Positions 1-22,684 of a stretch of DNA of 25,561 nucleotides are shown here, piece by piece. The notes below the pieces were generated by a model. It saw nothing but the letters and a program-made list of their open reading frames with translations. It was not told where the DNA came from and did no database searches. Source of the stretch: Plasmodiophora brassicae (Eukaryota); contig CP145417.1 of the NCBI GenBank assembly GCA_036867785.1, positions 1,364,001 through 1,389,561 on the forward strand, written 5' to 3'. The position numbers were made by a program, and so were the translations under genes. How positions within the stretch are numbered: the first letter of the stretch is position 1; the number at the start of each line of letters is the position of its first letter.

Positions 1-334
1 CGGACCTTGTCTACCGGTGTAGTTTACCCTGTCGGGCGCCCAACTGCAGCGTGGCAGACGAACTGCAGCGGATGACGGTGCAGTTCGTCCAAGTGCGTGC
101 GGCGTGCGCCGGTCGGCACGCCCCCGCCGGGCACGTTTATCAGTCGTGTGCTCATGTCCGGACAGGGGGCATGGCCCTCTGCGCGGAATGTGGGCGGAAC
201 GTTCCGGCGGGTCAGCGTGGCGCAGTTTTCGTCACTGCCCAACCCGAGTGCCTGCACCGTCGCTTGTGAATATTGGCGAGGGCGAACGCTTCGGGCGACC
301 TAACCGTAACCGGCTGCTGCATACGCCGTCGTCC

Positions 335-856
335 ATGGGGTAGCCAATATTATCGTCCCGCGAACAGCGCGCCGTGGTCGCTGACCGCTGTGGTGTGCGC
401 AGGCGCCGGAAGATTGCGATCGAGAAGATCGAGGAGGCGAAACGACGGCGCAGCACGTTCAAGAAGCGTCGCGTCGGCCTGCTGAAGAAGGCGGAAGAGC
501 TGGCCGTCCTGTGCGGGTGCAAGGTCGCCATCACGATTGAGTCCGACGATGGCGTCAGCCAGTACTGCAGTGACGACGTTAGCGCGATCATGCGCGCGTA
601 CTACCACGACCTCGGCAGCGTCGGGAACGCGCCCGGCCTCCACGCCATCGTCCTGTCGAACGACGACACCCCTTCATCGTCCATGGGGGGTTCGCACACG
701 GACACCACCCCTGAGGACGCGTGCCGGGCACCCAGTGCGGTCGGGCACCACCCGGACGTCGGTGTCGTTAACGACAGCTCGTACGATCTCCTGCAGCAGA
801 CGCAGGTCATGCTGCCGTCCGGGTTCGCCGACACGTCACAGCTCTATCCCGGGTAG
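335..856 (+). CDS. MADS-box transcription factor 1, MEF2-like; join(335..339,403..856)
   Basis: ATGGG at 335-339 is followed by a 63-nt intron 340-402 (GTAGCC...GCTGAC branch...GCGCAG). Splicing gives MGRRKIAIEKIEEAKRRRSTFKKRRVGLLKKAEELAVLCGCKVAITI, a canonical MADS N-terminus, then a MEF2-like segment SQYCSDDVSAIMRAY. Stop TAG at 854-856. Confidence 0.92.
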
Positions 857-926: not shown

Positions 927-1553
927 TCACAGCAGTGCTTCAGCGGCATCGTAGTCGAGCCCGGCGAAGAAGTCGAGCGACGGCCGCGTGCACGCGGGGG
1001 GCAGGTCGAAGGCGGTGGACGTCAGGTAGTGCGCGTCGAGGTCGGTCAGGCTCATCATGCCGGACGCGAACGGCGACGGGTCGTCGGGGCTGGCGGGCGC
1101 GCTCGACAGGACCGGCGACAGGGACCAGTCGAGCAGCGCGCCGTGCTTGAACGCATGGTCGGCAAAGTCTTCCGGCCTGACGAGCGCAGGCAGCGTGCCG
1201 AGGTTGACCAGGTCGGCGGCACTGAAGCTGGCCGCCGTGCTGACCGGGGACCCGTTCTCGACGACCCCGCTGCCGCTGCTATCGTTAACCTTCGACGTCG
1301 CCGTCGCCGTCGTCGTCGTCCTTGCCACCCCGGACGTGATCTGGCGGTACTTGCGAAAGATCGAGTTGATGTCGTCGCTGGCGAACCGCTCGCAGGGCTT
1401 GACGCGGTCGTTGATGACGACGACGACCTGGCTGCCGGACAGGCGCGCCAGCTCGGCCGCCTTCTTCACCAGCCCGACACTGCGCTTCCGCAGCGTCGAC
1501 ATGCGCCGCTTGCTGTCCTCGATACGCTCGATCGGGATCGACCGCCTGCCCAT
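927..1553 (-). CDS. MADS-box transcription factor 2, MEF2-like, 208 aa
   Basis: ATG at 1553 gives MGRRSIPIERIEDSKRRMSTLRKRSVGLVKKAAELARLSGSQVVVVI...FASDDINSIFRKY, followed by an S/T/P-rich acidic tail. Convergent with MADS 1, 70 bp between the stop codons. Confidence 0.92.
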   Translation of the reverse strand: MGRRSIPIERIEDSKRRMSTLRKRSVGLVKKAAELARLSGSQVVVVINDRVKPCERFASDDINSIFRKYRQITSGVARTTTTATATSKVNDSSGSGVVENGSPVSTAASFSAADLVNLGTLPALVRPEDFADHAFKHGALLDWSLSPVLSSAPASPDDPSPFASGMMSLTDLDAHYLTSTAFDLPPACTRPSLDFFAGLDYDAAEALL

Positions 1554-1960
1554 GGTCGACGACGATGATGGCCACGATGATGCCGTGGAACGGAATGCGC
1601 TCTGAGGCTGCACCGTCGGGTCGAGCGACGGCCGAGTGCGACGACGACGCCGGAATTACTCCACCACGGGGGGCCTGACCCGAAATAGCACCGCGCGCGC
1701 GGGCCACGGTTTACGTTACGGAACGTGCGCGATCCGAGCCACGCTTTTAGGCACGTCCCGCGACGAATTTAGAACGCGCCCGGCGAGGGCATCCCGCCGT
1801 CCTTGCGAGGCGCGCCCAAGAGCGTGGGCCGCCGGCAACCCTGAGAGCCGCGGCCGATCCCGCTGACCAGCGCGCCAGCACGTACCGTCGGCCGACCATA
1901 TACAAGCTGGTGGTCACATAATAAGGCCCTCGTTTTTACTGACCGTCGTTTTCATTTGGG

Positions 1961-3361
1961 TCATGATCGGCGCAACAAGGCAAACAGGAGCCTGCAGAAG
2001 ATTCGTGAGCTGAAAGCGCAGACCTTGAGTGCAGCGCCGGCCCCGTAGAGCATCGTCGGCCAGAACCGTAAGTTCAGGGAGCGGAGGAGCGCGTTCCAGG
2101 ACAGGTCGGCGACGATATCGCCGGGTGTGGCGCGTGCATCCCGGGACGCCAGACGGTCGCTGAGCGCGTCCCAGACGGACTCCTTGACGATGCTGGCGGA
2201 CAGCGCCAGCCACGTGGGTGGCGATATCTCCAACGCCCGAGCGACCGCGCTGAACGGTCGCTTGACGAACGATTCGACGCTACGTTTGGCAGGGTTCAGC
2301 GCGAGCAGAACCGCGATGTGCAACGGATTTCGGGTCTCGATGGCTCTGAGTAGCGCCAGCGATGCCGTTAGTTCGGCGTCCATGTCGTTCGTTCCAAGAC
2401 GGCGGCGGGTCCATTGCATCACCTTTCGAATACGGGTCACGTTCGACACAGACTGGTCCATCGACAGCAACCTGGCCGTGGCCAGTACCCCCTGCGGTAT
2501 GAGGACGTTCTTCCCGACAAACTTGGCCGCACGACGACTCGGCTGCGACTTGCCGATAAACTTTACGACCGGCCAGACGGCATTGATGACGCGAGCCACC
2601 CTGTCTTTCCAAGGCGTGCCCTCCTCGGGTGAGAAATCATCATCGTCGTCCGAAAACCAGCTTGGCGCCGCGGTTGGTTCCTCCGCAGGCGACGGCGCCG
2701 CCGGTGAAGGCTGGGACGATTCCGGATTACTGGGCGACCTCAACGACGTCGGGATCGGAATGGACGGTATAAACCGATGGGTTCGCTTTGGAGGCGGCGG
2801 GCGCCTCCTCATTCGTCGCCAGACGTACGTGAGAGCGCCGCCCAGCGCGCCAACCGCCATGATGCCCGCTGCCGTCTTCGTCGGCGTGCGCTTGCTAACC
2901 GGTCGGGCGACGTACCCGGCGTCCGGGCAGTGCCCGACCGCAAACCGGCTCTTGGAGACCGACGTTGTCGTATACTCACTGGTGCCGTCCTGGTGACCGC
3001 GGCGCCATGGGACGATGACGACGACGGTGACGGCAACGGCGGCAGCGACGACGGCGAGGGCGGCAGACACGCCCAGCACGATCCAGAACGTGCGCCGAGC
3101 CATCCCACACAGGCGGCGCTTGTCGACTGCGGGTGCTGATGCGCGCTCGTCATTGTCGCTGTCAGACAGCGACAGCGACGACGGCAGGTCGTCGTCCTCG
3201 TTGCGGCGGCGCCTGACAACCGCGGCCGCAGGCGGTCCCATGACGTGCGCCTCGTGGTCCAGTTCATCCAGCTCTGCCAATAGAGCCTGTTCCGATACAA
3301 ACTGTTCGATGACCAGGTGCTGCTCCAGGCTACCTTCGGCCAGGCCGCCGGCGCCTTCCAT
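1961..3361 (-). CDS. Hypothetical membrane protein, ~466 aa
   Basis: Long ORF from the first ATG (MEGAGG). Acidic N-terminus, hydrophobic segments FWIVLGVSAALAVVAAAVAVTVVVIVPW and AGIMAVGALGGALTYVW, a Pro/Ser-rich linker and a basic C-terminal region. No family recognised; exon structure not verified. Confidence 0.65.
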   Translation of the reverse strand: MEGAGGLAEGSLEQHLVIEQFVSEQALLAELDELDHEAHVMGPPAAAVVRRRRNEDDDLPSSLSLSDSDNDERASAPAVDKRRLCGMARRTFWIVLGVSAALAVVAAAVAVTVVVIVPWRRGHQDGTSEYTTTSVSKSRFAVGHCPDAGYVARPVSKRTPTKTAAGIMAVGALGGALTYVWRRMRRRPPPPKRTHRFIPSIPIPTSLRSPSNPESSQPSPAAPSPAEEPTAAPSWFSDDDDDFSPEEGTPWKDRVARVINAVWPVVKFIGKSQPSRRAAKFVGKNVLIPQGVLATARLLSMDQSVSNVTRIRKVMQWTRRRLGTNDMDAELTASLALLRAIETRNPLHIAVLLALNPAKRSVESFVKRPFSAVARALEISPPTWLALSASIVKESVWDALSDRLASRDARATPGDIVADLSWNALLRSLNLRFWPTMLYGAGAALKVCAFSSRIFCRLLFALLRRS

Positions 3362-3914
3362 CGTGGCCCGATGCCAACGCAGTGCTGACGACGTCGGTCC
3401 GCCAGAACCTGCCAATACCTAAATATAGCAACTTGCGCGTGTGATCAATGCCGCAGTTCACAGACTGCGCAGTTTTGTGGCTTTTCGAAACTGTGGCTCG
3501 ACGAATATTCACCCACTACGGTAGGCTTTAGACGCCTCTGGGGTTGCCCTCTGAACGTATGTCACCGACGTGCCGGCGATGGTCGAGTTAGCCTTTACAA
3601 GAGGGAATCGACGGCGCCGCAGTCTAAGCATACGGTGTGTTCGATCAGATAATGGTGCCGGCGGCCAGATGCTGCTGCAGCCGGCTTCGGGCGGATCGCG
3701 TGCCAAAACTAAACTTCCGTCATGGATCGATCGCCCTCCACCCTTGGCCGGCCGCCCTTTGTGCGTATCGTTCGGTGCTAGTATCTCGTCACAACGTGAT
3801 GATGAACCGTACGAAGTCATCAGCTACGAGCGCGTACGTTACCGTAACGGGATGGGATCGCAGGCTCACTTCCGATCCGCAACCTCACAGCTGGCAAATG
3901 TTTTAATTGATATA

Positions 3915-4448
3915 CTATCGATGCCTCCGGCGAGGTGGTGTTTTCGATTTCAGAACAGGATAGCTGACCTGGTTCTTGCAGTCGTAGTAATGGAAGACGC
4001 ATTCGGCGCGGGATTTGCCTTTGAGAGCGGCGGCGATGGCTGTGAAATTCTTGGGGGTCGCCGCGAACGCCTTCAGAAACGCCGCGTGCTCGTCGTCGGT
4101 CCAGCGCGAGGTGCGGCGCTCTTCACGATCCATCTTCAGCGCCATTGGGTCAGTGACCAGCGAGGGGCGTGTTCGCGATTGAAACAACCGCTCGAACATC
4201 CCGTCTGACAGACGTCGTAACGCCCTCCATGCATCACGAAATGGCGACGTCGCAGGTGCAGGCAATGATACGTTCAGCGACGTGGACGTCGTCGAGGTCG
4301 ATTCTCGACGCTGGGTCCTTGGCGATTTCCGACTTTGTGGCTCAACAAATCCTTCCAACGCCTTACGTTTCGGTGACCGAAACGGGACTCGACCGTTGTT
4401 GGGCACCGCACCTGACGTCACTCGCCGGGCGCCCGGCCTTCCGCCCAT
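3915..4448 (-). CDS. Small SANT/Myb-domain protein resembling the N-CoR/SMRT deacetylase activation domain, ~177 aa
   Basis: SLVTDPMALKMDREERRTSRWTDDEHAAFLKAFAATPKNFTAIAAALKGKSRAECVFHYYDCK matches the DPM...WT..E...F...F...PKNF..IA..L..KS...CV..YY..K pattern of N-CoR/SMRT/Snt1 SANT1. Start taken as the first ATG (4448). Confidence 0.8.
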   Translation of the reverse strand: MGGRPGARRVTSGAVPNNGRVPFRSPKRKALEGFVEPQSRKSPRTQRRESTSTTSTSLNVSLPAPATSPFRDAWRALRRLSDGMFERLFQSRTRPSLVTDPMALKMDREERRTSRWTDDEHAAFLKAFAATPKNFTAIAAALKGKSRAECVFHYYDCKNQVSYPVLKSKTPPRRRHR

Positions 4449-4753
4449 ATTCTCGTGTGTGATGAATGTAACGCATGGGCGTTGGTGGGACGAGCTGGGC
4501 ACGCGCCAATTTATTCATGACGTATCACGTAGCGACCGAGCGTGCGCTTCCTAGGTTTCATAGCATGCCTATACATGCTGCCCATGGTTATACGTTCTGC
4601 AGCACAGGCAGCCTCCGCTACGAGCAGCGTGTGCCCCTGAAATAGCAGTCTGGCACAGCGGGCGGCGCGTCCCGAATTAGTCGCACGGTTCGAAGCTGGT
4701 GGTCGAGATCGCAGCTCGACCTTACTGATCACGGCCAGGGCGCCCGCTCGACC

Positions 4754-5335
4754 ATGGGCAAGGTTGCCGTCGCGATTGCCCGCATCCATGACAAGAAGAA
4801 GCGCTCGGCGACGTACCTGAAGCGATCGGCGGGCCTCATCAAGAAGGCGGAAACGCTGGCAGCCCTGTCCGGCTCGCACGTTGTCGTTGTCGTCCGCAAT
4901 CGTGATGTGCGACGCAAGCCGGCCGCCTCCGATGTCATGACGTACACGTCTGGAGACATCAACGTGATCTATAGCCGGTACAACGATGCTATGCGGAGCA
5001 TGCTCCAGGAAGACGTGAACGATTCGGCACCTGAACCACAGGCGGTGGAGGCAGTGCCGACAATGGCAGAGACCGCTGGCCTTTCGACGATTGAGGAGCA
5101 TGTGTCCACGACGAGCACGACGCTGGACATGGCCTGCTTACCGCGAATTAAGCTGCCAGTGGACCCGATCGTCGAAGGCGGGCACTCGGGCATGCTGGAC
5201 CTGACCCCGATCCCAGACATTTGGCGGACGCGTGATGCGTCCGGCAGGCCGATACTGACGCCGCGCCGGTCTCCCAGGAATCATGTCGGCAGCGTGTTCG
5301 GCTGGGCGACGCCCCACCTGACCACTCCCAAATGA
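4754..5335 (+). CDS. MADS-box transcription factor 3, divergent, 193 aa
   Basis: MGKVAVAIARIHDKKKRSATYLKRSAGLIKKAETLAALSGSHVVVVV...TYTSGDINVIYSRY. ACCATGG start context. Confidence 0.88.
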   Translation: MGKVAVAIARIHDKKKRSATYLKRSAGLIKKAETLAALSGSHVVVVVRNRDVRRKPAASDVMTYTSGDINVIYSRYNDAMRSMLQEDVNDSAPEPQAVEAVPTMAETAGLSTIEEHVSTTSTTLDMACLPRIKLPVDPIVEGGHSGMLDLTPIPDIWRTRDASGRPILTPRRSPRNHVGSVFGWATPHLTTPK

Positions 5336-5420
5336 TCCCTGTACCATCCGACGTCTATTCATCAACATGTTGTGCGTAAATAACATTGTCAGCTATTATA
5401 GTTGAATCGTGTAACATATA

Positions 5421-6229
5421 CTAGTTGATGGTGATGGAGCATTTGCAGCACACGATCCTGTACAACTTGTACATGCAGGATTCCATGTCGTCGCACGACG
5501 GAAGGCAGTCGCATGCGGGGCACTCGGGCATCTGGATGGAACAATCGGCGCATTCCGGGCACGACAGATCGGGGAGAGACAGTGCGGCTGCCTGTTGACC
5601 CTCCCGTCCCGCCGCAGCGCAGACCAGCGCGAACGCACCTGTCAATGTGAACCCGACGATGTACAAGACCTTCACAAACAGCCATCCGCCTTGCACCGCC
5701 TCGGACCCGTCCTATCACCGTTATCAGCGCCTCGAGGGCAACCCGGGGAATCAACGTGGAAGACCTGAACTGATGCCCCAGCGTATAGACCGTACAGAAC
5801 CAGGGAGATCGTCAGGGTGCCCAGGACGACCAGAGCCTGCCCGAGACGCGGCATTCGCAAACAGGGCGCGAACCCGTCCAGCAGAATCGACGACGGTCTG
5901 CGTTCGTCGAGGTCGCCCTGCCTTGCCGAAGTGCCGCCCTTCAACGTTGGAAGGTGTTGCTGCCCCATCGGTTGTGATGTGACTGTTTGCTGAACCCCAG
6001 CGATGCCGTCGCGTTCTCTGTCGAGTTTAGCTTTCCGGAGGCGCGAGATGATCATCATGCGATGGCCAGGTCTGAGCGGCGGCGCGTCCTTGTCGGCAGC
6101 GACCAGATCTAGCATGGCGTCCCAAGCGTCCTTATCCTCGGATAGGATGAAGTCGCGGTCGGTGAACCCGAGGCGCGTGAACGACGGCAGGTAATCGCTC
6201 AGTGGAGGGCCGCCGAGAATATCCTCCAT
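5421..6229 (-). CDS. SAM-like domain, two-TM, Cys-rich-tail protein; complement join(5421..5711,5765..6229), ~251 aa
   Basis: N-terminal LSDYLPSFTRLGF...LRPGHRMMIISRL resembles a sterile alpha motif. A 53-nt phase-0 intron at 5712-5764 (GTCTTC...GCTGAT...GATAG) joins two ORFs in frame, giving two hydrophobic helices and the tail CPECADC...CPACDCLPSC...CCKC. Confidence 0.6.
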
Positions 6230-6879
6230 ACTCGCACGTCGACCCCCTCGACGAACCTGACACTGGCTCCCCCTGCCCAGTACGTACGAATCACACCGCT
6301 CTAACTGGCTGTCAAACACGACCATGAATCGGTGGCATGATCGACAGCAAAAGTATGCGACGCCTGCAAAAGCCAATTCCACTCTCCATCCGCGGTTCGA
6401 TTGGTTCTGCAATTAGGCGCGCGCGCGCAAACGTCTTCGACGGCTCCATAGCTATCGACATCGATGTCCAACGTACGCCCTTTCTTAGCCTTCCCCAATG
6501 CTGCTGTACGTGTATAGCGCCCAGATTCTCCTTCAAGGTCGGCTATGCAGAAAGTGCCACGTCTGCTACAAGGAAAATGGTGCCCAAACGACGTTGCCAG
6601 CGGGTAGGAAATGTGTTTGGGGCGTACAAATGCGCCAATTGACTCTGCTTCCGTCTACCGAGTTCCTCCCGGAACGATGGCCATTATCTGTGCGATCACG
6701 TTCCACTATCTGCAGTGGAAGTTCGGCTGTCCCCAGTTCATCGCCGAGCTTGTCCAACTTGCTGTCCACCTGCGTCTGCAGCCCGTCACTGTGGTTGATC
6801 CATCGTCATCCGAAGTCGGCCACCATTGGTGGACGACGTCGGGAACGCGATCCGCATCTGATCCGCGTCCGCTACGCTT

Positions 6880-8312: not shown

Positions 8313-8782
8313 CGGAGCCAGTGATGGGATAAACCAGGAAACCGGCTTGACGTGTTAACGAACCAACCAATATTGGTCGCTGCCTGCAGGCCTAGGCAGG
8401 ATATCGAATGTCGCCGTCTGCATGCACCAGGACGTCGCGCGCGCAGCCCGCCCTCGTCCATGCTTGCCATCGAGCCTGATGTAATCTTCTTCTTCCACCC
8501 AGGCGGGACGGAGATCACTGGCGTTTGTGCCTTGATCAACCAATGCCTGCGCACGTCAGCTTGTTCACACTCGGAACTGAGCGTGCGACACGGCGCCCAG
8601 CAATGGCGAAGGTTTGAACCCCGTTCTTTGTAGGCGTGCTCCATGGTATGCGTCTTTTTGTCCTGGTGAGGCGGTGCCACCCTGGAGCAGGCGCCGCTGT
8701 TAGTGTCGACGCTTGTGACAGCCTTCCGTCGGTCATTGACGTCATCCGGGCGGGGGGCGTCTGACGGCCACCCCAGATTTGG

Positions 8783-13594: not shown

Positions 13595-15011
13595 ATGTCC
13601 TTGCGTCCCATACGCGGACGTCGCCTGCTCATCGGTTCGGGTGTCGCCCTTCTTGTCGCCGTCGTCCTCGGCATCGGGTACCAGTACTGCTACCTGTTCG
13701 GCTTCCCGTCTGCCGACATGCGATACTACGTTGCTGGGGACCTCGGCGGAACCAACTGCCGCCTCATCCTCGTGCAGGTCGGGTCCCCACATTGGTTCCC
13801 TGCGACAGGGACCTAACCACATTGTGGTCGACAGGTGGCCCCGGGGCTGAAGGAGACGGTCGTCGCTGAGAAGACGTACAGGTCGGCGGAGCACGCCCAC
13901 CTGGTCGCCGTCCTGGAACGATTCCTGGTCGATTCGGGTGCCAGTCGTGGCCGGCACCCGACCGTGGCCTGCATCGCCGTGGCCGGTCCGGTCACGTCCA
14001 ATCGCTTCGCCCAGATCACCAACCTCGTAAGGCGCCGGCTACCGGCCTTGCTGTACTGCCTGCCCCATACGCGACGCTGATGAGCGGTCGCGCGTCGATG
14101 CACGTAGAACTGGACGCTGGATGCCGCCGCCATTGCCGCCCAACTGGACATCAGGGACGTGTTCTTCCTGAACGACTTTGTGGCAATCGGGTATGGCCTG
14201 CTGGCCCTGCGTCCTGGCGATTACCTGACGATCAACGACGTCGCCGGCCAGCCCGGGGCGCCGATCGCGTGCCTGGGCGCCGGCACGGGCCTCGGTGAGG
14301 TGTACCTGACACACAACGGCGACGAGTACGACGTGTGGCCATCCGAAGGCGGTCACGCCGACTTCCCGGCGCGGACGCGCACCGAGTTCGACCTGATGGA
14401 GTTCATACGGCGCCGCGCCGGCATCGATCGCGTCAGCGTCGAGCGGATCGTGTCCGGGTCCGGCCTGCCCCTGATCTACGACTACTTCAAGGACGGGCAC
14501 GCCGACCTGGTCAGCGACCGCGTCGACGCCGACCTGTCCGCCAGCGGCGCCGACCGCGCCGAGATCATCGCGCGACACGCTCTGCAGGACACCGATGTCC
14601 TGTGTCGTCGGGCGTTCGACACGTGGCTGTCTGCGTACGGTGCGGAGGTACGTACGTCGGCACACACGCACACGCCGGGATCGTTCTGTTGACCGCGCAC
14701 AGGCAGGCAACATGGCGCTGAAGACGCTGTGCTTCGGCGGGCTATACATCGCCGGCGGGATTGCCCCCAAGGTCGTGTCGTCGTTCAAGACGGGCGACGA
14801 CCTGTTCTGGAAGGCGCTGTCGTCCAAGGGGCGCATGCGCGATGTGCTCGAGCGTATCCCGGTGCACGTCGTGACGCGGCCGAACGTCGGCATGCTGGGC
14901 GCCCAGCTCGTCTGCCTGAGGCGCTTCCAGCGCGTCCTCGATCACGACGACAAGGATGACGACGACCCGAAGCTGACCGCAGATGACGGAACAAACAAGA
15001 CCAGCTTATAG
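13595..15011 (+). CDS. glk: Bacterial-type (Glk family) glucokinase with N-terminal hydrophobic anchor; join(13595..13777,13835..14026,14108..14647,14703..15011), 407 aa
   Basis: Motifs GDLGGTNCRL, VAGPV, ITNLNW, NDFVAIGYG, GAGTGLG, SEGGH, SVERIVSGSGL, GGLYIAGGIAPK and KGRM..L..IPV. Three phase-0 GT-AG introns (57, 81 and 55 nt) restore one frame. Confidence 0.95.
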
Positions 15012-15908: not shown

Positions 15909-16646
15909 TTACAGGGGTAGCGGGTACTGCTGTTGCTGCTGCTGCTGCCGTACACGGTCGGTGATGCCACCTTGGGACGGCGGCGGTGGCGGCATCGGCC
16001 ATCCTTCCCAAGGAGACCCGGCGCCGATGATGACATCACCGAACAGTTCGGTATCGGGCGGCGGCGCCCATTGCTGCTGCTGCTGCTGCTGCTGCTGCTG
16101 GGTGCGATTGTGGTGGTGCGCCGCCTGCAGAATCTCGGCCGCCACCAAGTTGCTCGCAATGTGCATGCTCGGCGACGTCGGCATGGCGGCGGCCGCCTCC
16201 TGCTGCTGCTGGTGCGCGGCGTCGACGTCGTAGTGGTAGCCGAGCGGAGGGAACGGGTTCGCGCCTGGCATCGGCGCCTGCCCGCAGAGCTGCGGTGGCG
16301 GCTGGACGACCTGGGCGACCAGCGGCTGCGTCAGCTGGTGACGCGTCGTCGTGATCACCTGGTTCGTGCCCTTGTACAGGCGGGACGATCGCCCCGGCTG
16401 GTCGACGACCTCGACCTCGCCCTCGAACGCGACGTACGACTGCCACAGGTGCTCGATGTCGTCCGCCGAGCTGAACTGGGCGCATTTCGCCTTCGACTTG
16501 TGCATGACGACCAGTGCGACGTCGACGTCGCAGAGGACGGCCAGCTCTTTGGCCTTCTTGATCAGGCCCAGGTTGCGCTTGCGGAACGTCGCCTCGCGCT
16601 GCTTGCGCTCGTGGATGCGCATCATGGGCAGCTTGCCGCGACCCAT
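15909..16646 (-). CDS. MADS-box transcription factor 4, MEF2-like with polyQ/Pro-rich tail, 245 aa
   Basis: MGRGKLPMMRIHERKQREATFRKRNLGLIKKAKELAVLCDVDVALVVM...AQFSSADDIEHLWQSY. Q10 tract at 16071-16100 plus shorter Q runs. Confidence 0.93.
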   Translation of the reverse strand: MGRGKLPMMRIHERKQREATFRKRNLGLIKKAKELAVLCDVDVALVVMHKSKAKCAQFSSADDIEHLWQSYVAFEGEVEVVDQPGRSSRLYKGTNQVITTTRHQLTQPLVAQVVQPPPQLCGQAPMPGANPFPPLGYHYDVDAAHQQQQEAAAAMPTSPSMHIASNLVAAEILQAAHHHNRTQQQQQQQQQQWAPPPDTELFGDVIIGAGSPWEGWPMPPPPPSQGGITDRVRQQQQQQQYPLPL

Positions 16647-17038
16647 AGGATTGGATGGGCCGCCGGAGCCGCCGTCCCGATGTCTGTGCCGATGCGCCAC
16701 ACAGGCCCGGGCGCGACGCGCACTGGGCGGCAAATGGAGCTCCTGGGGCCGACGGGCGACGTTACTGGCCGCAGCGCTCTCTTCTCGCTCTCCCTCTGTG
16801 GCCCGCGCAGTCCGCCACGCAGTGCCCCGCACCGGACCCTTACGACACGCCTTACCTTTGCCCGACGACACCAGACGCGCTCGGTCAGATAGGGTACGCC
16901 CGGGCGTCATGTTGCCAGCGTTGACCCAGTGCAGCAGCGGTAATTGGACGGCGGCACCGCAGCCGCCGTCCTGTGCAGCACCGGCCGCGCATAGACAATG
17001 TGGGCGCGCGCCCGAGGCAGCCGCCGTGCCGTGCCGTG

Positions 17039-17269: not shown

Positions 17270-19300
17270 ATGCTGCTGGTAGCGCGGCTGTCGTCGCCGC
17301 ACATTCGTCGCCCGCCCTGGCGGCGCCTGGCAGGGCGTTGCTGCTGGCGCGCCCTGCACGCGGATACGGCACCGATCGGCGCCGAGCCGCCGTCGCTGTG
17401 CGACCTGGTGGCGGCCGGCACCGAGAAGGACCACGGCCTGGACCGGTTGCACCCGGACGCCGAGCGGCGCAGGCACGCCTGGGCGACGGCGCTCTGCGAC
17501 GCCCCGTTCGTGCAGGTGTCGTCGGTGGCCGACCTGCCGATAGCGGCGCCGGATGGCACCCTGTACCGCTGCCGGGTGGACCTGGCGCCCGACCAGGCCG
17601 TCGCCGACCTGCTCCCCGACAGCCACCTGGCCACCAGCGCTGCGTTCGTCCCGAAGCAGCCTGCCGCCGACGACGTGCCGCTGGCGTCGCCGTCGTTCCT
17701 CGACGTGATCTGCCTGCCGGCGCCGATCGGCGATTTCGATCGCCCAGGCGGGCATTGGTCGCACGTCCTGTTCCTGAGCGAGGACGACTACGACATCGCC
17801 GGCGACATGCTGGCGGACGCGGCGAACCGGGTCCTGCTGGTCGGCAGCCCGGGCATCGGCAAGACGGCCCTGTTCTACAAGCTGGTCGCCTGCCTGGCCC
17901 GGCGCGCCGACCTGCTGCCCGACGAGGCGAGCGCGCGTATCCCTGCGGCGACGTCGATATCGACGATCGCCCGCGTCACGTCGCACAAGGCGTACCTGGG
18001 CATCGACGTGTACCGCCTGTGGCGTCCGGCGACCAGCAGCAACGACGTCGCGTGGTTCACGGTCACCTGTCACGACCTGCCGCTGGCGCTGCTGGATCGG
18101 CCCGACGTGCTCGTCCTGCTGGACCCGGCCGAGGCGAACACGCAGGCGCCGATGCAGCGGGCGAAGGTCGTCGCGATTCAGACGGCCGACAAGGAGCGCG
18201 ACCGGTACAAGGTGTTCGGCGCGACGCTGCCGTACGCGACGTACTTCTACCCGTGCCCGTCCGCCCAGCAGCTGCTGACGATGGGCAGCGTCATGCGACG
18301 GGCCGACGAGCGCCTGCACCAGCTGTACAGCGTCGAGGCGGTTCGCGACCGGATCAAGCGGTTCGGGCGGTACCCGCGCTACGTGCTGCCGGCGAACGAC
18401 AGCGATACGCGCCTGCACGCCATGCAGCAGGAGGGGGCCATGGCGAACCGCACGATGAACAAGCAGCACATCGACACGATGCTGCAGGTGCTGACGTCGC
18501 CGCCGGCGCCGAACACGACGAACCTGCAGATGTTCTACCACTGGGACCTCGTCATCGACGTCGAGCGGCGCGGCCCGCACCGGTACAGGGCGTACGCGCT
18601 GAACCTGGCCAGCCACGCGGTCGAGAAGGTCGTTCGGCGGCGCCTGTTCCTGATGAAGCTCGAGCTGGCCGGGCGCACGCTGATCGGGTACCAGACGGGC
18701 CGTCTGAACCTGTCGCCCAGCCCGATCTGGATCCTGTACCTGGCCTTCTTCGTCCAGCAGGTGCGCGTACGCGGCGGCATCCACTGGGATCGCGCCGTGA
18801 CGGCCTTCACGCTGGGCGGGCACTCGTTCGAGGCGGCGCCGGACGTCGCCGCCGACCCGGTCTGGGAGACCATCTCCATCGCCAAGCGCAAGAACTACGA
18901 GTTGGAGCAGGTCAAGCACTACGAGATGTACTTTGACTCGATCTACACGCCGCAGCAGGCCAGGTACCCGTTCGTCGACGCCGTCTGGCACGACGACGGC
19001 AAGACGTTGCACGCCGTGCGCGTGTCGCTGTCGGACACGCAGCCCAAGTCGGTGCAGGAGCTCAAGGACTTCATCGACGCGATCGGCCTGATGGACGAGA
19101 GCGCCAAGCGCCCGAAGAAGGTCATCGTCCACTACCTGCCGCTGCCGCGCGATGCGGCCAAGATGGCGATCGCGCCGCCGTCCGCCTTCTTCCTCAACGC
19201 CGACGACCCGGACACGCAGAAGGAGGTCAAATTCCTTCTGGACAGGTACCGCATCGAGTTCGACGTTATTCGGTCGCCGATCGGCGTTAATATCGAATGA
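17270..19300 (+). CDS. Crinkler/RHS-type P-loop NTPase with C-terminal restriction-endonuclease-like domain, 676 aa
   Basis: Single long ORF with strong codon bias. Walker A VLLVGSPGIGKT, Walker B-like VLVLLDP, IKRFGRYPRYVL helical-domain motif, and C-terminal YPFVDAVW...LHAVRVSLSDTQP resembling the P..DA...QxT core of CR-REases. Confidence 0.75.
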   Translation: MLLVARLSSPHIRRPPWRRLAGRCCWRALHADTAPIGAEPPSLCDLVAAGTEKDHGLDRLHPDAERRRHAWATALCDAPFVQVSSVADLPIAAPDGTLYRCRVDLAPDQAVADLLPDSHLATSAAFVPKQPAADDVPLASPSFLDVICLPAPIGDFDRPGGHWSHVLFLSEDDYDIAGDMLADAANRVLLVGSPGIGKTALFYKLVACLARRADLLPDEASARIPAATSISTIARVTSHKAYLGIDVYRLWRPATSSNDVAWFTVTCHDLPLALLDRPDVLVLLDPAEANTQAPMQRAKVVAIQTADKERDRYKVFGATLPYATYFYPCPSAQQLLTMGSVMRRADERLHQLYSVEAVRDRIKRFGRYPRYVLPANDSDTRLHAMQQEGAMANRTMNKQHIDTMLQVLTSPPAPNTTNLQMFYHWDLVIDVERRGPHRYRAYALNLASHAVEKVVRRRLFLMKLELAGRTLIGYQTGRLNLSPSPIWILYLAFFVQQVRVRGGIHWDRAVTAFTLGGHSFEAAPDVAADPVWETISIAKRKNYELEQVKHYEMYFDSIYTPQQARYPFVDAVWHDDGKTLHAVRVSLSDTQPKSVQELKDFIDAIGLMDESAKRPKKVIVHYLPLPRDAAKMAIAPPSAFFLNADDPDTQKEVKFLLDRYRIEFDVIRSPIGVNIE

Positions 19301-20717: not shown

Positions 20718-22684
20718 TTATGTAAGCCGTTTCCCAGCCAATTCGGCCTCATACTTGTTGACGATGGGCTCAAGGACCTGCAAGACGCGATCGACGTTGA
20801 CGAACAGCTCGGATCCGTGTTCGCCGCTATCGGATCGTATGATCGTGTACGAAACGTTCAGCTTCGTTGCCGTGATCTTGTGGCAATCGTTGTACCAGTC
20901 GTTACCGAGCATGCCCACCTTCATGTAGATCTCAAGGATCGATGCGCCTGCACGCATAAACATTGAATTGGACAGCCCTGTGAAGGCATCCAGATCAGTT
21001 AACAGATAAGGGACCTGAAAGGGAGCCCCATCACGAACCTGCGCCATGAGGCCCGACGACGATATCAGCGTTATAGTGCATCGTGATCATATCGGGGACG
21101 CTGTCGCTAGGTGCAAACACGACTGTGTCCGCATTGGAGAACTTCCGGCGGATGGCTTCGACCAGGTCATCGTGGTTAGATATCGTCCTGGAGCCCGACC
21201 CACGATGCTGGATGACTATCTGGACATTGTCCTTGCGATCGCATAGCTCCGGGTGACGTTTGCTCCATTGCTCGCGGAACAGATCGCGAAACTGCCGCGC
21301 GGCTCTCGTATTCGCGCGAACTGAACTCAACGCTGTCAGTTGTATACAATGCATGTCAGCAGCAGATGAACCCACTCAGAGCCGTTGCTGTTGGCACCAG
21401 CAAACGCTCAACCTTGTACGCAGAACGAGGCGAATATGAAATGAAACGTGAGCGATCCAGCCCTGGTTGTAAGATGTGTAAGCCGGTGAGCAGAGTCAGT
21501 CGCAATCAAACCATGCTAACCGATGAGTTCATGGAGGAGCCATAGGCCATCTCTCGGCGGGTCATACGCGATGACTTTGACGCTAGGATTCTGCAGAAGG
21601 AAGTCGCGCACCAAGGCGAGTCGCAGGAACGACTCGATGAACCAGTGGTAGTACCTGACGACCCTACGCTTAGAACCCGGAACGCCAATGACTCTTGAGT
21701 GCGCCTTACCATGACCCCCAGTACTGTGCGATCAGTACGGCCGTCCCGGGGACCTCGTTTACAGCAGGATGCACTCGGGACAGAGGGTATGGGTCTACAA
21801 ATTTGTCAGGTCCTCCCTCCAGACCTGGGACAACGTGGGGGGCGACTTACTCCAGTGCGGAACGTCAGCTCCTCCAGGACGATACACCGTCGAACAGTCA
21901 TAAATGACGGATTCGTCACCCGTCACGTACGCCTATAGGAGACAGCGAATCAGAGACTGCAGCGGCGTCACGAGACACGCCAAAGGCAGACATGTTTGAA
22001 CAGGACGACCATGCCCTTCACTTCGTCGTAGTCGTAAGCGGGCAACCGGACGAACGAGATGCCGTGCGTACTGGATGATTCCAAAACGCCAATATCCTTG
22101 ATAACAGTGGTGATCGCGTTAGGTTCGTGGAACAAGGCCATGGACAAACAATTCCGCCGTCAGTAAGTACATACATGCTGTTGGTTGCCGATCGAAACCT
22201 CGATGCTGGATCTCGGGCAGCATGCGGATTGATGGCTTCAGAGCGAGAGTATCGAACGACGGCGCCCTCAGAGGGCGACCAATATGGTTATCGAGGTCTT
22301 TCGGTACAGAGACCTCGAAGGAGGAGGATACCCAGGGTGCGGCGTAGAGGTTGGAAACCAGAGCCCGGATCGCGAATGCAGTAGCAGTGCAGAGTGCGAG
22401 CAGGGTCAGTGAGGCGATCGCGGCGCGACCGGGATGCCTCTTCCAAGTCGCCAAACGGTATCGTATCGATGCACGCCACCGATGTGGAAGGAACGTAGGC
22501 AGGCCATGCACAGGCTGCCGTTGCATCTGCATCAACACTGGACGCTTGGATCTCGGCTCGTCTATTTCCGTTTCGCGGACCGGAGTCCTCTTTGATCCTT
22601 GCTGCCCCGAAGATCCGATCCTTCGGAACGGTGGGCGTGATTCACGGGCCGTCCGCTACGGAACATACCTCTTACATTCCCCAT
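20718..22684 (-). CDS. Glycosyltransferase family 61 (DUF563-like), type II membrane protein, multi-exon
   Basis: Spliced exons give the TM segment AAIASLTLLALCTATAFAI, QYWGSW|YYHWFIESFLRL (~21650), R..SRTISNHDDL, and ADIVVGPHGA|GLSNSMFMRAGASILEI (last intron 20978-21038). The 5' end is uncertain: either ATG 22684 with a mini-exon, or an ATG near 22530. Confidence 0.85.

Follow-up and report, generated by a model that had tools for sequence, protein, structure and literature searches.

Plasmodiophora brassicae carries a short gene whose product consists of a deacetylase activation domain (DAD), very probably of the NCoR/SMRT type, without any other domain. The gene lies on the minus strand at positions 3915-4448 of a 25,561-nucleotide stretch of contig CP145417.1 (assembly GCA_036867785.1, positions 1,364,001 to 1,389,561), the whole of which is referred to here as the window, and it stands head-to-head with a MADS-box gene, MADS 3. 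The product is 94 or 177 amino acids (aa) long, the start codon being unsettled. In our reading, to which we would give a probability of roughly 0.55, it is a minimal, expressed and functional activating subunit for a class I histone deacetylase (HDAC) of the HDAC3/Hos2 type, a role proposed by analogy with the isolated DAD of SMRT. The novelty lies in the architecture, a familiar domain that makes up a whole protein by itself, an arrangement not reported so far, and this in a lineage that has received little study.

A deacetylase activation domain in a short reading frame

In the list of open reading frames (ORFs) the gene runs from ATG 4448 and encodes 177 aa, and an exact look-up found residues 84-177 to be 100% identical to a 94-aa database protein (P0001). 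The public annotation is hypothetical protein PBRA_008378 (CEP01066.1, P0151), 94 aa, which starts at Met84 (ATG 4199), differs from the window-encoded 94 aa at one residue and belongs to the same cluster as P0001. The reading frame is uninterrupted in two isolates, with this single substitution between them. A first-pass annotation of this DNA had described a ~177-aa DAD-like protein beside a MEF2-like gene. Both of its ORFs are present, 3915-4448(-) of 177 aa and 4754-5335(+) of 193 aa, the motifs it named could be located (LVTDPMAL at 4137-4160, K133 within TPKNF, Y154-Y155 and K158), and its statement that the protein encodes little beyond the DAD holds for 94 as for 177 aa. The length of ~177 aa stands for the longest ORF and not for an established product, the public model being 94 aa and codons 1-83 being without coding bias. 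The features of the gene are as follows.

3915..4199, minus strand: coding region with good support, 94 aa, running from Met84 to Arg177 of the 177-aa ORF; stop codon TAG at 3915-3917
4200..4448, minus strand: in-frame upstream extension, 83 codons from ATG 4448; basic; either an N-terminal tail or a 5' leader
4137..4160, minus strand: DAD-specific N-terminal helix motif LVTDPMAL, residues 97-104, by alignment to SMRT GLMADPMKV
3981..4106, minus strand: SANT three-helix core, residues 115-156, from Pfam PF00249, AlphaFold2 (AF2) and Foldseek
3972..4052, minus strand: equivalents of SMRT contact residues, K133 for K449 (4050-4052), Y154 for Y470 and Y155 for Y471 (3984-3989), K158 for K474 (3975-3977), and N159 replacing K475 (3972-3974)
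4134..4188, minus strand: optional intron of 55 nt, joint 4133->4189 in sequencing runs X1 and X2; CT..AC on the plus strand, GT..AG on the gene strand

The DAD is the SANT-like domain with which SMRT and NCoR bind HDAC3 and which forms an inositol-phosphate pocket, as described in one source (PMC9488896). Pfam places Myb_DNA-binding (PF00249) at residues 115-156 of our protein (E 3.4e-8; 33.9 bits, cut-off 24.4). A phmmer search against PDB sequences, which returned 11 sequences at E<=1, gave the SMRT DAD as the best match (1xc5_A, E 8e-9, query 96-163; 4a69_C, E 1.2e-8, query 95-163), followed by NCoR1 (2eqr, E 6.6e-6), whereas CoREST, MIDEAS and RERE reached only E 0.14-0.3. The SMRT alignments begin ~20 residues before the SANT core, with LVTDPM opposite SMRT LMADPM. 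A profile built from the P. brassicae protein and 14 DAD segments finds 4a69_C at 1.3e-28 over profile positions 2-77, whereas it finds CoREST at 9e-18 over positions 27-90 only, that is, over the SANT part alone.

A HMMER pass over 1.84 billion representatives gave 582 matches at E<=0.001, with 13 at <=1e-10 and the protein itself alone at <=1e-30. The signature DP[MLIVF]-(24..34)-PKx[FWY] occurs in 41 of the 149 other listed matches, and their shared pattern (NGLVxDP...W[TS]xxE[KR]xxF...PKxFxxIA...K[ST]xx[DE]CVxxYYxxKK) is one to which our protein conforms in fitting register. W116, F124, P132, K133, I138, Y154, Y155 and K158 are invariant in an 18-row alignment (A1), as are the D and P of the helix motif in a 15-row DAD alignment (A3). 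The [LIV]xDP[ML] motif of the DAD helix is present as LVTDPMAL (residues 97-104), at the family's distance of ~16-18 residues ahead of the SANT Trp (residue 116). When 603 ORF pieces were scored with a hidden Markov model (HMM) of the helix region alone, this site came out on top (E 0.16, conditional 0.003). The AF2 model has the three SANT helices at 118-130, 135-141 and 147-157, with a predicted local distance difference test score (pLDDT) of 91-96, and an upstream helix at 101-113. Its top Foldseek match is the HDAC3-bound DAD 4a69_C (template modelling score 0.77 on the target, root-mean-square deviation 1.4 over 61 columns), and the SANT three-helix core of the NCoR/SMRT/Snt1 DAD is present. 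The N-CoR/SMRT-like identity proposed in the first-pass annotation is borne out by the gap between the SMRT DAD (E 8e-9) and other SANT corepressors (E >= 0.14), with signature and profile in agreement, and an NCoR/SMRT-type DAD rather than a generic SANT domain is in all probability what the sequence encodes.

Residues were numbered after SMRT by structural alignment (model 96..160 to 4a69_C 412..476), with the codons checked. Four of the five inositol-phosphate contact positions of SMRT are kept, the position of K475 being Asn159, and all four (K133, Y154, Y155 and K158) are among the invariant residues of the 18-row alignment. The ligand roles of K449, K474 and K475 are reportedly those given by Watson and co-workers in 2012. 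The two tyrosines, Y470 and Y471, contact Ins(1,4,5,6)P4 and are required for HDAC3 binding and activity according to the parts of three papers that treat them (PMC6606711, PMC3710971, PMC4848466). On the enzyme side, the pocket residues mutated in human HDAC3 are H17, G21, K25, R265, L266 and R301 (PMC3710971). MTA1 is likewise described as having one ligand-binding Lys fewer than SMRT (PMC3710971).

Two further searches returned nothing. A word-indexed homology search, whose index is too coarse for a short domain, gave 0 of 519 candidates of near length at E <= 0.001 and 0 of 7977 scored candidates of greater length. Metagenome loci for P0001 yielded 145 pattern matches, none of them confirmed.

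Extent, transcripts and architecture of the gene

The region downstream of Met84 carries the coding signal. Six local ORFs (2,070 codons) served to train a codon log-odds model, in which residues 84-177 score +35.2 bits in frame and negative in the other two frames, and their guanine-plus-cytosine content at third codon positions (GC3) is 0.71, the GC3 of local genes being 0.71-0.86. Residues 1-83 score -24.3 bits, with a GC3 of 0.57 below the second-position value (GC2) of 0.67, and this lack of coding bias agrees with the public 94-aa model. A sliding codon scan finds a coding signal only from ~4200 to 3930, and it stops at the stop codon. In the AF2 model the extension is devoid of helices and strands as far as residue 68, with block means of 50-60 for the pLDDT of residues 1-70, and a helix spans 69-88. 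A secreted effector was considered and set aside, neither N-terminus having a hydrophobic, signal-peptide-like stretch by eye, with no predictor used. The doubtful extension also holds a perfect TGACGTCA palindrome at 4413-4420; the window has 3 of these where 0.69 would be expected.

RNA-like contigs from three runs of two studies (X1 and X2 from one, X3 from the other; that the runs are RNA is a guess) together cover 3874-4499. The X1/X2 contigs cover 3874-4134 and 4189-4499 and the X3 contig covers 3982-4472 unspliced, so that the contig ends differ between the studies (3874 vs 3982). X1 and X2 appear to hold spliced RNA because they show a 53-nt GT..AG-type splice (5710->5764, side 255) in the following gene, both flanks of which lie on one contig. 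As the contigs extend to 4472 in X3 and to 4499 in X1 and X2, ATG 4448 is on transcripts. Other sense-strand ATGs lie at 4518, 4476, 4234 and 4230, and on those transcripts ATGs 4476, 4448, 4234 and 4230 all precede ATG 4199. No listed joint connects the ORF beyond 3874-4499, and no contig of the three runs lies on 3420-3873, where missing cover proves nothing. Relative to the window, the X1/X2 contigs show 12 differences in 2800-3408 and 8 in 5764-6287, with 0 over ~1,400 covered bases in 3874-5710; strain differences are patchy here.

The 55-nt joint 4133->4189 has a depth of 4.1 and a shorter side of 29 letters, for which it was flagged as short. Its GT..AG orientation fits the sense strand of the DAD gene, CTGAC stands 16 nt before the 3' end of the 55-nt piece, as at three other joints in the region, and the length fits an intron average of 60 bp reported for P. 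brassicae (PMC4471660). When the piece is removed, residues 88-105 are lost, the DAD helix with them, and the frame shifts; the main ORF would then end after 109 aa without a SANT domain. The unspliced form is read as coding because the 55-nt piece is in frame, has a positive codon score (+8.6 bits for residues 84-112) and holds a conserved motif; on this reading the splice would be optional and unproductive. An alternative upstream exon for the spliced frame was sought and ruled out. A 30-codon window at 4335-4246 scored +17.6 bits, but 17 of 310 presumed non-coding windows score as high and the frame holds stops; no other GT..AG with a CTRAY branch fits.

With regard to architecture, all 41 signature-bearing relatives are 307-2478 aa long. 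A profile search limited to proteins of 48-167 aa had 310 candidates, of which 9 reached E <= 1e-8. The eight short look-alikes comprise one labelled 'partial', one EukProt record without a contig and six on contigs of 548-13,067 bases, several have junk-like ends, and the short look-alikes other than the P. brassicae protein appear to be fragments. A DAD-like protein of 109 aa with 43% identity (P0079) appears in the records as Beta vulgaris BVRB_041240, on a contig of 548 bases; it is a fragment or possibly non-plant. No second Myb/SANT domain was found in the window among 213 of its 219 stop-to-stop pieces of at least 70 aa plus the two focal ORFs, the scan having left out four pieces inside 2072-2636. 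A product of 94-177 aa does not have the architecture of a long scaffold, in which a second SANT domain serves histone interaction and other regions bind partners. Given this length, the lack of a further SANT domain and a coding signal that ends at the stop codon, the protein should not, by its architecture, be classed as an NCoR/Snt1 orthologue. Cluster look-ups of 20 top relatives among the 582 matches turned up none from P. brassicae. The papers searched make no mention of PBRA_008378 or of a P. brassicae SANT-domain protein, and a search on the deacetylase activation domain, Snt1 and eukaryotes brought up no stand-alone DAD among the matches listed.

Proposed function of the free domain, its rivals and the MADS neighbour

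More probably than not, the gene encodes a minimal member of the NCoR/SMRT/Snt1 family that retains the DAD alone, with its helix, its SANT core and a short tail of basic residues. If the isolated SMRT DAD is a guide, the product would dock on a class I deacetylase of the HDAC3/Hos2 type, complete the basic inositol-phosphate pocket and activate the enzyme. Its long relatives also have repression, TBL1/GPS2 and receptor-binding regions, which are missing here, and for this reason the protein would serve as a free activating subunit and not as a scaffold for targeting. The 55-nt splice, through which both the DAD helix and the frame are lost, may keep down the amount of active protein.

Several observations weigh against a functional activating subunit. 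The start codon is unsettled between the 94-aa and 177-aa forms, the position of K475 is Asn, and the family E-x-K after the Trp reads E-x-H here. Taken by itself, the helix motif does not reach significance across the window (E 0.16). No ortholog was found, since below 1e-30 only the protein itself appears among the 1.84 billion representatives. Finally, the frame-breaking spliced form has a depth of 4.1 vs 5.9-7.4 for its flanks in X1/X2, and a sizeable share of the transcripts may therefore not encode the domain.

Some of these points would also be expected if the gene were a transcribed remnant of a once long NCoR/Snt1-like gene, drifting with little or no function. This explanation is unlikely, though it is the likeliest of the rivals. 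The great length of every signature-bearing relative, the non-coding look of the 83 upstream in-frame codons, a frame-breaking splice form of a depth comparable to its flanks and the lack of an ortholog all speak for decay. However, every invariant family position is kept, including four of the five ligand contacts, codon bias amounts to +35 bits across 94 codons, and the frame is open in two isolates that differ by one substitution.

It is less probable again that the DAD-only protein is a decoy, competing with a full-length NCoR/Snt1-like scaffold for the HDAC and freeing the enzyme from chromatin targeting. The evidence on the interface fits a decoy as well as it fits an activating subunit, and so does the lack of all targeting regions. 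A decoy needs a scaffold to compete with, and no full-length NCoR-like protein of P. brassicae is among the 20 top relatives named, a weak objection given the 562 of 582 matches left unnamed. The opposite case can be carried further into a scenario that we regard as a long shot, in which P. brassicae has no long NCoR/Snt1 scaffold, the free DAD runs the HDAC3-type enzyme, the exonic intron sets the supply of active protein, and targeting is provided in trans, possibly by the expanded set of MEF2-type MADS factors clustered near the gene.

The neighbouring gene brings in another explanation. The relevant features are as follows.

4754..5335, plus strand: MADS 3, MEF2-type MADS-box gene, 193 aa; Pfam SRF-TF PF00319, E 6e-11, residues 10-50
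~4688-4738, plus strand: intron of 51 nt in the 5' untranslated region of MADS 3; joint in X3
~4978-5041, plus strand: optional frame-breaking joint of 64 nt in MADS 3, GT..AG; X3, with an unspliced contig also present
4449..4753, no strand: spacer between the ATGs, 305 bases; contigs leave only ~4500-4576 unlisted; weak repeats only

The 193-aa MADS 3 protein is matched exactly in an NCBI-derived collection. The first description of the neighbour as MEF2-like was correct: a MADS domain is followed by a MEF2-like extension, and against the PDB it matches MEF2A/C over residues 1-90 (E 1.3e-5) vs SRF over residues 2-49, the MADS core (2.2e-3). MEF2-type MADS genes are the only type reported for P. 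brassicae in the part of PMC10484287 that concerns them. The head-to-head spacing of 305 bases between ATG 4448 and the MADS 3 ATG is likewise as first described, and under the 94-aa model the ATG-to-ATG distance is 554 bp.

On this arrangement had been founded the proposal of a module of transcription factor and corepressor, in which the DAD protein and MADS 3 share a promoter and the DAD brings HDAC activity to the targets of MADS 3. The divergent pair with 305 bp between its ATGs favors it, contigs of both genes occur in the same runs, and animal MEF2 factors work with HDAC corepressors. We nevertheless consider it improbable, and nothing that was tested supports it. For P. brassicae 404 genes per Mb are reported (PMC4471660), a density at which two divergent genes separated by a few hundred bases are nothing unusual. 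Neither the MEF2 consensus (YTAWWWWTAR) nor the CArG consensus (CCWWWWWWGG) occurs in the spacer 4449-4753, the sole exact MEF2 consensus of the window being at 3419-3428 and the sole CArG box at 8367-8376. The other three MADS ORFs of the window (344-853, 930-1655 and 15912-16910) have no SANT neighbour in the ORF-piece scan, and contig depth is not informative on co-expression. A complex prediction for two copies of MADS 3 (residues 1-95) with the 177-aa ORF scored 0.02 against a mark of 0.34, in a run without alignments in which the partner fold is uncertain, and it counts neither way on binding. Least probable of all is a small SANT/Myb protein of a generic kind, with no HDAC role, that would bind DNA or histone tails. 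The sequence signature, of which the helix ahead of the SANT core and the K/YY/K positions form part, is peculiar to the DAD clade.

Further observations concern the neighbourhood itself. A search for shared promoter motifs gave nothing usable, TGACGTCA occurring once, in the ORF extension, and the repeats of 4190-4760 being weak. The MEF2 consensus at 3419-3428 (CTAAATATAG, 0.02 expected in the window) lies ~60 bp upstream of ATG 3361 of a 466-aa membrane-protein-like gene and 11 bp past the end of an X1 contig, and it may be simply a TATA box. The 64-nt joint in MADS 3 takes out a portion of the MEF2-like stretch, after which the shifted frame reads into a tail rich in Arg, Trp and Cys; it is a second frame-breaking 'exonic intron', adjoining that of the DAD gene. 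Four MADS-box ORFs lie within 17 kb, at 344-853(+), 930-1655(-), 4754-5335(+) and 15912-16910(-). All have an S-DDI..I...Y MEF2-like stretch after the MADS core, the other three are 22-36% identical to MADS 3, and together they are a local cluster of diverged paralogues. Elsewhere in the window there are a glucokinase gene at 13817-15008(+) that short introns divide among three frames, a fragment of a glycosyltransferase-61 at 21034-21375(-) and a 676-aa ORF at 17270-19300(+) with weak STAND/AAA NTPase matches below the cut-off.

Significance and comparison with known systems

To our knowledge, the activator of HDAC3/Hos2 in animals and fungi has always been described within a very large scaffold. 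If the P. brassicae protein is a free activating subunit, a natural gene for the activating domain only would mean that activation and targeting are separable in evolution. It would also be the smallest natural reagent for studying how inositol phosphates control a class I HDAC, and would suggest that chromatin is regulated in an unusual way in the Rhizaria, a lineage of which little is known. This has a practical side, as the organism is an uncultivable crop parasite, the agent of clubroot, and a 94-aa protein is fully testable in vitro. The adjacency to a MADS gene adds little by itself and looks like ordinary tight gene packing.

The closest known counterpart is the DAD of SMRT/NCoR (human NCOR2 ~389-480, structures 4a69_C and 1xc5; NCOR1 2eqr). 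The two share the LVxDPM helix, the family spacing, and PKNF together with ECVxxYYxxK, at 38-39% identity over ~65 residues and with the equivalents of K449, Y470, Y471 and K474 kept. They differ in that the P. brassicae protein stands alone at 94-177 aa, has Asn in place of K475 and has two extra residues between the helix and the Trp. The human DAD sits within proteins of ~2,400-2,500 aa with repression domains, a second SANT domain and receptor-interaction boxes.

Fungal Snt1, which works in Set3C with Hos2, is the second point of comparison. The DAD signature recurs in fungal matches, among them a Tilletia protein (P0010) that also shares GKSRAECV. Snt1 is said to keep the inositol-binding residues in the relevant part of one paper (PMC4848466), and S. 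pombe Snt1p is equated with NCOR2 in another (PMC3485120). Snt1-type proteins are ~1,000-2,000 aa long and have a second SANT domain, whereas the P. brassicae domain is alone. The ELM2-SANT corepressors (MTA1, CoREST, MIDEAS and RERE) are more distant. Their SANT domain also forms an inositol-phosphate pocket with a class I HDAC, but it is preceded by an ELM2 motif rather than a DPM helix, its single-sequence matches to our protein are at E 0.14-0.3, and its profile match is confined to the SANT core.
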